In this document: positions 42,837-46,087 of the stretch, one piece after another
How positions within the stretch are numbered: position 1 is the first letter of the stretch
How the letters are laid out: each line of letters begins with the position of its first letter
Origin: an uncultured bacterium
GTDB lineage: Bacteria; Fidelibacterota; Marinisomatia; Marinisomatales; UBA1611
Length of the DNA stretch: 64,000 bases
Direction of reading: 5' to 3'
NCBI GenBank assembly: GCA_943788175.1
Contig: CALSPG010000005.1
Span: 96,001-160,000, forward strand
Translations under genes and position numbers: made by a program
Notes under the pieces: model-generated
Told to the model about the DNA's origin: nothing
Seen by the model: the letters and a program-made list of their open reading frames with translations, nothing else
Database searches by the model: none

Positions 42837-42892
42837 TTTTATATATTCTACTATATACTAAGTTTGTAAATAATCAAGTTAGGCAGGTTTAA

Positions 42893-43348
42893 ATGTTATC
42901 TATTGGATCAAGTGCTCCTGAGTTTCAACTTAATGATCAGGATGGGAATACAGTAAATATTAAAGATTTTGAGGGTCAAAAAGTTTTACTTTGGTTCTAT
43001 CCAAAAGCAAGTACACCTGGCTGAACTATCCAAGGTCAAGGGCTCCGGGATGAGTTCAAAAATTTTGAAAAAAATAATACAGTAGTGCTTGGAATGAGCG
43101 CTGATTCAATAAAAGCTCAAAAGAATTTTTGTACCAAACAAGAGTTCCCATTTCAATTATTATCTGATCCTGAGAAAGAAACAATAAAATCATATGGAGC
43201 AATAGGTTTAAAGAAGATGTATGGTAGAGAATATGAAGGAATTCTTAGAATAGCTTATTTGATTGATGAAAATAGTAAAATAGAAAAAGTTTATGAAAAA
43301 GTTAGTCCAAAGACTCATGCTGGTGAGGTTTTAAAAGACTTAGCTTGA
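42893..43348 (+). CDS. bcp: BCP/PrxQ peroxiredoxin with in-frame UGA at the peroxidatic position (probable selenocysteine), 151 aa
   Basis: ATG 42893 after AGGCAGG. Translation is MLSIGSSAPEFQLNDQDGNTVNIKDFEGQKVLLWFYPKASTPG-UGA(43022-43024, codon 44)-TIQGQGLRDEF..., in frame with track ORF 43085..43348. This gives the PxxxTxxC motif with U in place of C. Confidence 0.92.
43022..43067 (+). promoter_or_regulatory. Candidate bacterial SECIS element
   Basis: Downstream of the UGA: lower stem CAAGGT/ATTTTG, internal loop, upper stem GGGCTC(43040-45)/GAGTTC(43052-57), apical loop CGGGAT. An alternative 10-bp fold, TGAACT-ATCC / GGAT-G-AGTTCA, is also possible. The region is locally GC-rich in an AT-rich gene. 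Confidence 0.7.
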
Positions 43349-43351
43349 TTG

Positions 43352-44272
43352 CTATTGATTATTAATTATTAGATAGTTGTCTTGGAATGACATGAACCCT
43401 TCTTCTAAATAACCACTCATTAGAGAGTGCCCTTTAATCCAAAGCTCATTTTTTTTGACTACAAAATCTGTAAGATGGATTGGATTATTTTTAACTGCTA
43501 ACACAGCGCTATTTTCTTTACAAAGTGCGATATCGTTTACTTTAAAGTTTTCAATGTTTTCCCAGTCTTTACGCAATCGATAGCCTCGTTTTTGATCTAT
43601 CTCATCATAAGTAAATGTGTAATGAGGATCTTTTTTTGTAAATGGGCACATAGTATAAATGGGTAAAATCGCACAAATAACGACCCAAAAAGTCGAGTTT
43701 GCTTTCAAGTCGCAATAAAAATTCATGCCGGATCTTAGGTCCAGAGCTTTTTGTATACTATTTGCATTAACAAGTAAGCTGTAGTGTGATAAAAAAATAC
43801 TTTTATCCTCTGTTATCATAATGACGGCGGTTTCATCTAATAAAGCTTTGTATTTCGGAATAAAAACCGGGGAGTATGACAATATGGCTTTTTTAAAATC
43901 AATTCCAAATTTTATTCTTTTTGCGCCTAATTTTTTATTTATTTTGACATTACTTTTTTCAAGAAAAATACCTTTTGCTCCCATGTGCCATAGACCATAA
44001 AGTAATAATAATGACTGCAAAGATGAATTTTCTTCAATTATAACATTATCTTTTGGATTAATACCTTGCTCAGTTAGCCAATTAGCCATCTTTTGAATGA
44101 GTTGATAGAATTCAATATTTTTAAGATTATAATCACTAAAAATACTTTTTTCTCCAAATTTAATTATTTGACCCTCAATTATTGCTTGGGTGCCAGGGTA
44201 GGGGATCATGTATTCTATTGGCTCTATATTGCCAATAGTTTGCGCTTTGTATAATTGAGTTTCTAAATTCAT
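43352..44272 (-). CDS. Degenerate, shortened AMP-binding (acyl-CoA synthetase-like) protein
   Basis: ANL-fold remnants: EFYQLIQKMANWL...GINPKDNV, LSHYSLLVNA, ELWIKGHSLMSGYL. There is no TSGTTG loop and no C-terminal domain. Confidence 0.6.
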   Translation of the reverse strand: MNLETQLYKAQTIGNIEPIEYMIPYPGTQAIIEGQIIKFGEKSIFSDYNLKNIEFYQLIQKMANWLTEQGINPKDNVIIEENSSLQSLLLLYGLWHMGAKGIFLEKSNVKINKKLGAKRIKFGIDFKKAILSYSPVFIPKYKALLDETAVIMITEDKSIFLSHYSLLVNANSIQKALDLRSGMNFYCDLKANSTFWVVICAILPIYTMCPFTKKDPHYTFTYDEIDQKRGYRLRKDWENIENFKVNDIALCKENSAVLAVKNNPIHLTDFVVKKNELWIKGHSLMSGYLEEGFMSFQDNYLIINNQ

Positions 44273-44314
44273 GTTATTGATAGGAAGTTATAAAAATAAA
44301 TTCCGTAAATAAGG

Positions 44315-44938
44315 TTACTTTTCAGGCTTAACTTTTCTAGTTATCTGAAAATTATCAGTAGGCCGTGTATACCAGTCACCTGCTAATCTCCCGATAGGTT
44401 CTAATTTTTCAATATCGATTTTATTATTGGATATTATACTATCATCTATGTGAAATAATACAATGCTTCCGATGACAATAAATCCGCTACCCGCAGTTCC
44501 GTCCCCTATCTCAACGATTTGATTTAGATTACATTCAAGACTTATTTTTGCTTCTTTCAGTATTGGCGGAATAATCTTTTTTGATTTTGAGGTACTTAAA
44601 CCAGAAATCTCAAATTCATTAATATTACTATCATAATCTGTTGAGCATTCAACCATTTGCTGAGCAAATGACTCAGAAACTATATTGACTGTAAACTCTT
44701 TTGTGTCTCTTATGTTAACTAAAGTATCCTTTTCTTTTCCATCCCACCCTCTTCGAGCAGGCGCAAACATGATGGTTGGTGGATTAGAACAAACACCGTT
44801 AAAGTATGAAAAGGGTGCAATGTTATCAACTTTTTTTAAACTAGTTGTACCTACAAATGCAATCGGTCTTGGGACAATTGATCCAATCATCAGCTTATGT
44901 GTTTCCTGAAATGTTATCTTATCTGGGTCATAAATCAT
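44315..44938 (-). CDS. Flavin reductase-like FMN-binding split-barrel protein
   Basis: GSIVPRPIAFV, NIAPFSYFN, KDTLVNI..TKEFTVNIV, IGRLAG.WY. Confidence 0.9.
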   Translation of the reverse strand: MIYDPDKITFQETHKLMIGSIVPRPIAFVGTTSLKKVDNIAPFSYFNGVCSNPPTIMFAPARRGWDGKEKDTLVNIRDTKEFTVNIVSESFAQQMVECSTDYDSNINEFEISGLSTSKSKKIIPPILKEAKISLECNLNQIVEIGDGTAGSGFIVIGSIVLFHIDDSIISNNKIDIEKLEPIGRLAGDWYTRPTDNFQITRKVKPEK

Positions 44939-44941
44939 AAG

Positions 44942-46087
44942 CTAAGAATTCCAAGAATAGATATATTTTTCATCTTCGATTTTTTGCGAATCAGTTGTTA
45001 AGTCTACTGGTTTAAAAGTATCTATCATAACAGCAAACTCTTTAGTCTCTTTTGCCCCAATAGATTCTTCGATTTTTCCTGGCTGTGGCCCGTGTGTTAA
45101 GCCCATGGGATGATAAGTTATCGATTCTGGTTCAACACCTTTCCTGCTCATGAATTTCCCGTCGACATAATATATAATTTCTTCGGAGTCTACATTACTA
45201 TGAGCGTAAGGAGCGGGTATTGAATTTTTATGGTAATCATATAACCTAGGCACAAAAGAACAAACGACGAAGCCTTTAGATTGAAACGTTTGATGAACGG
45301 GAGGTGGTTGATGAATTTTCCCAGTAATTGGCATGAATTCTTTAATGTTTATTTTCCAAGGATAATAATATCCATCCCAGCCAATTATATCAAAAGGGTG
45401 ATTTTGATATTCATAAGATTGAAAACATTCCCCGTACTTAACATCAATTAACGTATTTTGTTCTAAAGACGGTTCATCGTGTTGAGGGGTTATAATATCT
45501 CGTTCAGTAAATGGTGAATGCTCTAATAGTTGACCGAATTTATTTCTGTAGCGTTCAGGTGTTTCAATTGGTTCTTTTGATTCAATGACTAATATTTTTA
45601 ATGGGGAATTAATTTTCATTTTCCATATCACGCCTCTTGGAATAACTACATAATCTCCATAGACTATATCAAAACTCCCAAAATTTGTTTGTAAGGTGCC
45701 TTCCCCGGCACTAATAAACAACAATTCGTCAGCATAAGCATTTTTATAAAGAGTATCCATTGACTTATCGACATGACATTTGGAAATTACTAAATCAGCA
45801 TTCAGAAATAGTGTTTTTCGAGAAAATACAGCATCTCCCTCACTTTTAATATTTGATGTTTTTAAATGATAATGTTTATTTATTTTTTCGATTACATCAA
45901 TTTCATTTTTGGTTTTAGAACCTAAATTTTTTACTGCAGTTGGTGGGTTTATATGATATACATTTGAGTACATGTGGCTAAAACCATTTCTGCTAATTAG
46001 CTCTTCCCAAAAAAGATTTTTATTTTCATCTCTAAATTCAGTGTGTTTTTTTTGTGGTATTTCTCCTCTTTTTTGATAGAATGGCAT
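44942..46087 (-). CDS. hmgA: Homogentisate 1,2-dioxygenase
   Basis: MPFY...G.IP.K.H, HPFDIIGWDG, IHQPPPVH, PYAHSNVDSEE, HPMGLTHGPQPG; lies in the hppD operon. Confidence 0.92.
   Translation of the reverse strand: MPFYQKRGEIPQKKHTEFRDENKNLFWEELISRNGFSHMYSNVYHINPPTAVKNLGSKTKNEIDVIEKINKHYHLKTSNIKSEGDAVFSRKTLFLNADLVISKCHVDKSMDTLYKNAYADELLFISAGEGTLQTNFGSFDIVYGDYVVIPRGVIWKMKINSPLKILVIESKEPIETPERYRNKFGQLLEHSPFTERDIITPQHDEPSLEQNTLIDVKYGECFQSYEYQNHPFDIIGWDGYYYPWKINIKEFMPITGKIHQPPPVHQTFQSKGFVVCSFVPRLYDYHKNSIPAPYAHSNVDSEEIIYYVDGKFMSRKGVEPESITYHPMGLTHGPQPGKIEESIGAKETKEFAVMIDTFKPVDLTTDSQKIEDEKYIYSWNS

Follow-up and report, generated by a model that had tools for sequence, protein, structure and literature searches.

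Peroxiredoxins that carry selenocysteine (Sec) in place of the peroxidatic cysteine are an already known kind of enzyme, held in marine catalogues since 2005. In the Sargasso Sea catalogue (Zhang, Fomenko & Gladyshev 2005, PMC1088965), 'Peroxiredoxin (Prx)', COG1225, with the motif TXXU, was the second most abundant family, with 43 unique sequences; the GOS catalogue (Zhang & Gladyshev 2008, PMC2398784, Table 2) has 253 selenoprotein sequences from 34 samples under 'Prx, pfam00578, TxxU'. A 2026 review (PMC13188914) places Prx with PxxxTxxU among the established selenoproteins. The family has been published simply as 'Prx', and a literature search found no Sec-containing Bcp under the bacterioferritin comigratory or PrxQ names. 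Nor did it find a selenoproteome assigned to SAR406/Marinimicrobia, apart from three SAR406 single-cell genomes that appear in a 2016 survey only under 'orphan SelD' (PMC5029168).

Two other systems are close enough to serve as comparators. The first comprises the Cys-type Bcp/PrxQ enzymes, represented by the E. coli equivalog NF006960 and by the solved structures from Xanthomonas (3gkk and 5iox) and Burkholderia (5enu). The second is PrxU of Eubacterium acidaminophilum (NF040737, peroxi_PrxU), a protein of about 233 aa from an anaerobic Firmicute, which is reportedly a biochemically characterised Sec peroxiredoxin, in work said to have come from Sohling and colleagues in 2001.

The locus described here, bcp, lies in a window of 64,000 nucleotides, meaning the whole stretch of DNA that was analysed, from a genome (G000) of 2.27 Mb in 12 contigs that is 92% complete and has a GC content of 33.4%. 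An earlier note, made from the letters of this window, had read an intact BCP of 151 codons from the ATG at 42893, interrupted solely by a TGA where codon 44 should specify the peroxidatic cysteine; it had added that the open reading frame track reported the last 87 aa only. Both statements hold. The TGA, within ...FYPKASTPG-TGA-TIQGQGLRD, is the single interruption of the frame, and the table 11 list of open reading frames contains just the C-terminal portion, from a GTG start (Table 1).

The read-through protein is a full-length member of its family. The AhpC/TSA domain PF00578 matches residues 4-132 (E 5.5e-34, 117.2 bits), and the match therefore spans codon 44; the Redoxin domain matches with 78.7 bits. 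With U written as C, the protein scores 167.1 bits against the NCBIfam Bcp equivalog NF006960, 'thioredoxin-dependent thiol peroxidase', above the cut-off of 140. Solved Bcp structures align with it from end to end (residues 7-150), with E values of 3.5e-28 for 5enu and of about 1e-24 to 1e-25 for the Xanthomonas campestris Bcp structures 5iox and 3gkk. In these structures the place of residue 44 is taken by the Cys of 'fypkdstpgCt', and hence the active site is P37-x3-T41-x2-U44. The full PxxxTxxC-plus-Arg signature is present, as P37, T41, U44 (Sec for Cys) and R119 all align to 5enu and 5iox; the conserved peroxiredoxin arginine has an established catalytic role in the family. The counterpart of Cys80 in the Xanthomonas campestris enzyme is its second Cys ('nfCakq'), which we take to be its resolving cysteine, and this column is variable among 121 proteins, with C in 77, A in 29, S in nine, T in one and no match in five. 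The protein has no signal peptide. It is almost certainly a cytoplasmic Bcp/PrxQ-type thiol peroxidase in which Sec replaces the peroxidatic cysteine.

Table 1. Features of the bcp locus (positions in the window) and further selenoprotein candidates of the same genome (genome:contig:positions).
Feature	Position	Strand	Details and basis
bcp gene, Bcp/PrxQ-type peroxiredoxin, complete	42893..43348	+	151 codons + TGA stop; predicted Sec at codon 44; PF00578 and NF006960 matches
Active-site motif P37-K-A-S-T41-P-G-U44 (PxxxTxxU, U predicted)	43001..43024	+	Sequence reading; alignment with 'ypkdstpgC' of Bcp structures 5enu, 5iox, 3gkk
In-frame UGA, codon 44, peroxidatic residue, very probably read as Sec	43022..43024	+	TGA/Cys-codon alternation in orthologues
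SECIS-like hairpin	43040..43057	+	5' arm GGGCUC 43040-43045, loop CGGGAU 43046-43051, 3' arm GAGUUC 43052-43057
C-terminal ORF, 87 aa, GTG start; what standard ORF calling gives	43085..43348	+	Table 11 ORF list
Cys80 (TGT), candidate resolving cysteine	43130..43132	+	Aligns with Cys of 'nfCakq', Xanthomonas campestris Bcp structures
Arg119 (AGA), conserved peroxiredoxin active-site arginine	43247..43249	+	Aligns with R of 'gieRstfll' in 5iox and 5enu
True stop, also TGA (codon 152)	43346..43348	+	Stop position shared by orthologues (TAA, TAG or TGA)
L137, SelD, selenoprotein candidate (SHGAGUACKIGP)	G000:C7:396487-397527	-	One in-frame TGA inside 396-bit selD match
L129, second Prx-type candidate, FPYADTPGUVKEAC (Sec + Cys at +5)	G000:C5:278829-279338	+	AhpC-TSA 110.9 bits
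L130, thioredoxin-like candidate, WUTWC, hydrophobic leader	G000:C2:67302-67958	-	Thioredoxin_2 E 5.7e-13
L132, AhpC/TSA-like candidate, SWUPSC, T9SS tail	G000:C6:71052-72536	-	Screen + Pfam
L131, candidate, EYUGTC, T9SS tail	G000:C1:333769-334614	-	Screen + Pfam
L133, candidate, FTUGTC, T9SS tail	G000:C8:48119-48898	+	Screen + Pfam

Set beside the described systems, this protein belongs with the marine Prx (TxxU) family of Zhang and colleagues, as it combines the two features by which that family is defined, the pfam00578 domain and the TxxU motif (T41-P-G-U44), and it shares with that family a surface-ocean setting and a SECIS element directly after the UGA. COG1225, under which such sequences were filed, is the COG of Bcp. 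The earlier note had implied that the protein was new, a suggestion that does not survive the marine catalogues, in which Sec peroxiredoxins with TxxU have long been listed (PMC1088965, PMC2398784). Unlike those catalogued sequences, which came without an organism assignment, bcp can be placed in SAR406/Marinimicrobia, together with the Sec machinery; it is otherwise of the same kind. It also resembles the Cys-type Bcp/PrxQ enzymes, with full-length homology (E 1e-25 to 3.5e-28), the P-x3-T-x2-[C/U] motif, Arg119 and a counterpart to the second Cys of the Xanthomonas enzyme, but differs from them in the predicted Sec at the peroxidatic position. As it lacks a Cys at +5 (UTIQGQ, against CTxEAC), it is not of the E. 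coli C-x4-C form. With PrxU it shares a Sec, here a predicted one, as the peroxidatic residue, but the two belong to different peroxiredoxin subfamilies, the bcp protein scoring 36.8 bits against the NF040737 cut-off of 270.

The earlier note had suggested looking in relatives for an alternation of TGA with TGC or TGT at codon 44, and such an alternation exists. A search of 41 related genomes found a homologue in 40, and the 30 best orthologue loci, including that of G000 itself, were aligned. Codon 44 is TGA in 25 of these 30 orthologues, and TGT or TGC in the other five; across 80 loci of named species-representative genomes, TGA is found in 52 and a Cys codon (TGT or TGC) in 28. Both sets were drawn from GTDB species representatives, and because they overlap and their members are related, these counts do not represent independent events. 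A TGA at the same column in so many orthologues (25/30 and 52/80) is far more than chance would produce, and it is kept in orthologues down to 54% protein identity. The record titles of the Sec forms in the 80-locus set are those of Candidatus Marinimicrobia / Neomarinimicrobiota (SAR406). The Cys forms of other phyla (Bacteroidota, Gemmatimonadota, Chloroflexota and others) mostly have CTxEAC, with a Cys at +5 that is absent from the Sec forms.

The TGA is accompanied by a SECIS-like hairpin of 6 bp that begins 15 nt past the UGA, with 21 nt from the UGA to the loop. This is the arrangement of a bacterial SECIS, a stem-loop just 3' of the UGA with a small G-containing apical loop, here of the form CG(G/U)GA(U/C). 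Among the 25 Sec orthologues the share of paired cells is 89.7%, no slid control exceeds 52.9%, and none of 500 shuffles matched either the observed pairing or the covariation score. Pair 22-33 shows compensatory change, being C-G in 20 of these orthologues, U-A in five and broken in none. All six pairs form in 49 of the 52 Sec forms, and five in the remaining three, compared with six in just four of the 28 Cys forms. The stem and loop occur in 24 distinct variants among the Sec forms, GUACUC/GAGUAC and AUGCUC/GAGUAU being examples. The codons that make up the hairpin are rare in G000, with CTC at 4.8% of Leu, CGG at 3.2% of Arg, GGG at 12.9% of Gly, TTC at 16.7% of Phe and GAG at 25.5% of Glu. 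The only population variant nearby, G>A at 43042, turns a G-U pair of the hairpin into A-U.

The stability of the minimal hairpin (-5.9 kcal/mol) did not differ significantly from that of shuffled sequences (z -0.98), and hence its support comes from comparative evidence. The same approach led to the rejection of another structure, a long stem containing the UGA itself, which is the minimum free energy fold of this region in this sequence: it is 76.7% paired among the orthologues, and 44 of 500 shuffles reached the observed pairing and covariation score, so it was dropped in favour of the 6-bp hairpin. A scan against Rfam found no family on the forward strand at the hairpin, the sole match with E<=10 being a chance hit of a miRNA model on the opposite strand; this result carries little weight because bacterial SECIS elements are short and diverse.

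The genome also encodes the means to insert Sec. The earlier note had predicted that it should carry selA, selB, selC and selD, and all four were found above curated cut-offs, on contigs other than that of bcp. The tRNA-Sec, which ARAGORN calls as tRNA-SeC with anticodon tca, reaches 57.3 bits where the gathering score is 47; selA (467 bits) is followed directly downstream by selB (316 bits), and selD (396 bits) has an in-frame TGA of its own. The proposal of that note that this UGA is recoded finds support in this machinery, in the alternation of TGA with Cys codons, in the TGA-linked hairpin and in the purifying selection described below. With the gene, its motif, the alternation, the conserved hairpin and the machinery all observed directly in this analysis, we hold with great confidence that UGA-44 of bcp would be decoded as selenocysteine.

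Of the competing explanations, the one that survives best is that the codon is translated without selenium, whether by near-cognate insertion of Trp or Cys, or by Cys mis-charged onto tRNA-Sec when selenium is scarce in the open ocean, such that most of the working enzyme has Cys or Trp at this residue. We consider this very improbable. Firstly, a full Sec machinery is maintained, and the genome holds several other selenoprotein candidates. Secondly, the hairpin is specific to the forms with TGA. Both observations argue for selection on true Sec decoding. Thirdly, an enzyme with Trp as its peroxidatic residue would have no activity.

A further explanation is that every TGA in this organism encodes Trp (code 4) or Gly (code 25), as the public entries with W would imply: position 44 is W in 118 of the 120 best database matches, C in one, and in the last the motif pattern was unmatched. 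This is barely credible, as TGA is an ordinary stop in G000, where it ends 166 of 943 open reading frames of at least 250 aa, and the genes neighbouring bcp are long and intact under table 11. Moreover, every homologue without TGA has Cys in the column of codon 44, a dedicated tRNA-Sec is present, and in a genome-wide screen only 39 of 1289 TGA-bridged open reading frames showed coding potential both before and after the TGA. One of the W forms (P0002) ends in W at the position of the stop, as would be expected, to go by the protein sequences, if genes on short contigs had been called with TGA translated as Trp.

The gene might instead be a pseudogene, in which a nonsense mutation of the catalytic Cys codon has left an 87-aa remnant or no product at all. 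A single substitution separates TGT or TGC from TGA, and standard gene calling does find the 87 aa only, but the pattern of substitution makes this explanation equally hard to credit. In comparisons with the 52 Sec orthologues, using pairs with a synonymous difference below saturation, the median dN/dS was 0.22 (n=35) over the part before the TGA, codons 1-43, and 0.12 (n=37) over the part after it, codons 45-150. Therefore both halves of the gene are maintained as protein by purifying selection. The explanation is effectively refuted by the conservation of the TGA (52 of 80 loci, to 54% protein identity), and the hairpin covaries with that codon.

Least probable of all is an assembly or sequencing error at 43022-43024 in this metagenome-assembled genome, for TGA is found there in dozens of independent genomes, and the contigs of four runs from four studies (two DNA and two RNA-library) cover the site without a variant. 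The stretch occurs, wholly or in part, in 20 runs from 12 studies. The RNA-library evidence takes the form of contigs, which are not proof of transcription.

Returning to decoding as Sec, the arrangement of the locus suggests how synthesis might proceed. The small mRNA hairpin, with its 6 bp and CGGGAU loop 15 nt after the UGA, would recruit SelB carrying Sec-tRNA(Sec), such that UGA-44 would be read as Sec rather than as a stop; the TGA at codon 152, having no such hairpin, would terminate translation normally. For selenium insertion itself, the peroxidase chemistry and the identity of the reductant, we infer the following. The selenolate of U44, held in a site formed by P37, T41 and R119, would attack the peroxide to give a selenenic acid. 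This would be resolved by Cys80 to a selenenylsulfide, as in Xanthomonas-type Bcp, and in relatives that have Ala or Ser in place of Cys80, thioredoxin would presumably resolve the selenenic acid directly.

The distribution of the two forms also suggests a history. In a maximum-likelihood tree of 81 proteins, in which the catalytic residue of the Sec forms was masked as X, Sec is restricted to one Marinimicrobia clade of 67 rows. The Sec/Cys label requires at least five changes on this tree, or three when judged by well-supported branches only, compared with a mean of 23.5 for shuffled labels, none of 500 shuffles being as low. As the tree has a midpoint root only, the direction of these changes is one that we infer. 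Four Marinimicrobia loci of the Cys type (L054, L060, L059 and L061), with TGT or TGC at the catalytic codon, still have all six pairs of the hairpin, which is identical to that of Sec forms, and they group into two small clades that branch within the Sec forms. From their sequences, they look like recent reversions from Sec to Cys, each with a fossil SECIS. A tentative reconstruction, to which we give slightly less than even credence, is that Sec-Bcp is a lineage-wide and anciently fixed trait of marine SAR406/Marinimicrobia, gained once by a change from Cys to Sec near the base of the clade and followed by at least two later reversions (L054/L060 and L059/L061) that kept the 'fossil' SECIS hairpin.

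The bcp gene is unlikely to be the only selenoprotein gene of this genome, as the earlier note had also anticipated: a genome-wide screen points to at least seven more likely ones (Table 1). This screen was a crude one, based on TGA-bridged open reading frames with coding potential on both sides, followed by Pfam; it recovers both bcp and SelD. The second peroxiredoxin-type candidate, L129, lies on the same contig as bcp, has an N-terminus like that of a signal peptide, and has counterparts containing TGA in most relatives. The thioredoxin-like L130 is likely, from its sequence, to be a UxxC selenoprotein. Three more (L132, L131 and L133) share an N-terminal hydrophobic leader, a UxxC motif and a C-terminal T9SS sorting domain (Por_Secre_tail), and may be cell-surface or secreted selenoproteins of SAR406. 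A gene with a PCGU motif was also found. Another three candidates of the screen (L134, L135 and L136) matched nothing in Pfam and are probably spurious.

The surroundings of bcp suggest no obvious functional link between it and its neighbours. Upstream on the forward strand are genes for RadA-like, Tgt, NUDIX and sulfatase-family proteins. Downstream, at 43352-46087 on the reverse strand, lie convergent genes. Their products are a flavin reductase-like protein (PF01613), a homogentisate dioxygenase N-terminal-like protein and one whose resemblance to AMP-binding proteins is weak, at 26.9 bits and under the cut-off. A scan of the forward strand near bcp for sigma-70 promoters and terminators gave nothing above shuffled sequences. 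TAnnTTTG is the Bacteroidetes-type -7 promoter motif, and TAAGTTTG, at window positions 42859-42866 on the forward strand, 27 nt 5' of the bcp ATG, is a candidate match to this motif. One RNA-library contig starts at 42865, but contigs cannot show where a transcript starts.

In public databases this gene fares poorly, and the expectation in the earlier note that standard pipelines would call it a fragment is borne out by records of 85 aa, named 'peroxiredoxin Q/BCP', on contigs of up to 60 kb. There is also a full-length entry in NCBI nr from Ca. Neomarinimicrobiota, MEC7855215.1 (P0124), of 152 aa and named 'thioredoxin-dependent thiol peroxidase', the residue 44 of which is shown as C in a listing where U also appears as C. 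One of the commonest selenoproteins of the open ocean thus exists in public collections in three guises, namely the fragment of 85 aa, the complete protein with a catalytic Trp and the full-length NCBI record, and estimates of the antioxidant capacity or selenium demand of SAR406 made from standard gene calls would be wrong.

The main value of the finding lies in annotation, together with taxonomic placement: the complete Sec trait can be assigned to SAR406, and apparent Cys revertants that retain the hairpin are added. The finding leaves unchanged what is known of how Sec peroxiredoxins work. The bcp gene is also a well-documented example of codon choice being shaped by a SECIS hairpin, in a genome of 33% GC. 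If Sec-Bcp is indeed a trait of SAR406 as a whole, then this lineage would be a main source of the abundant and unassigned 'Prx' reads of the Sargasso Sea and GOS, and would possess a broader set of selenoproteins, some of them directed to the cell surface by T9SS.
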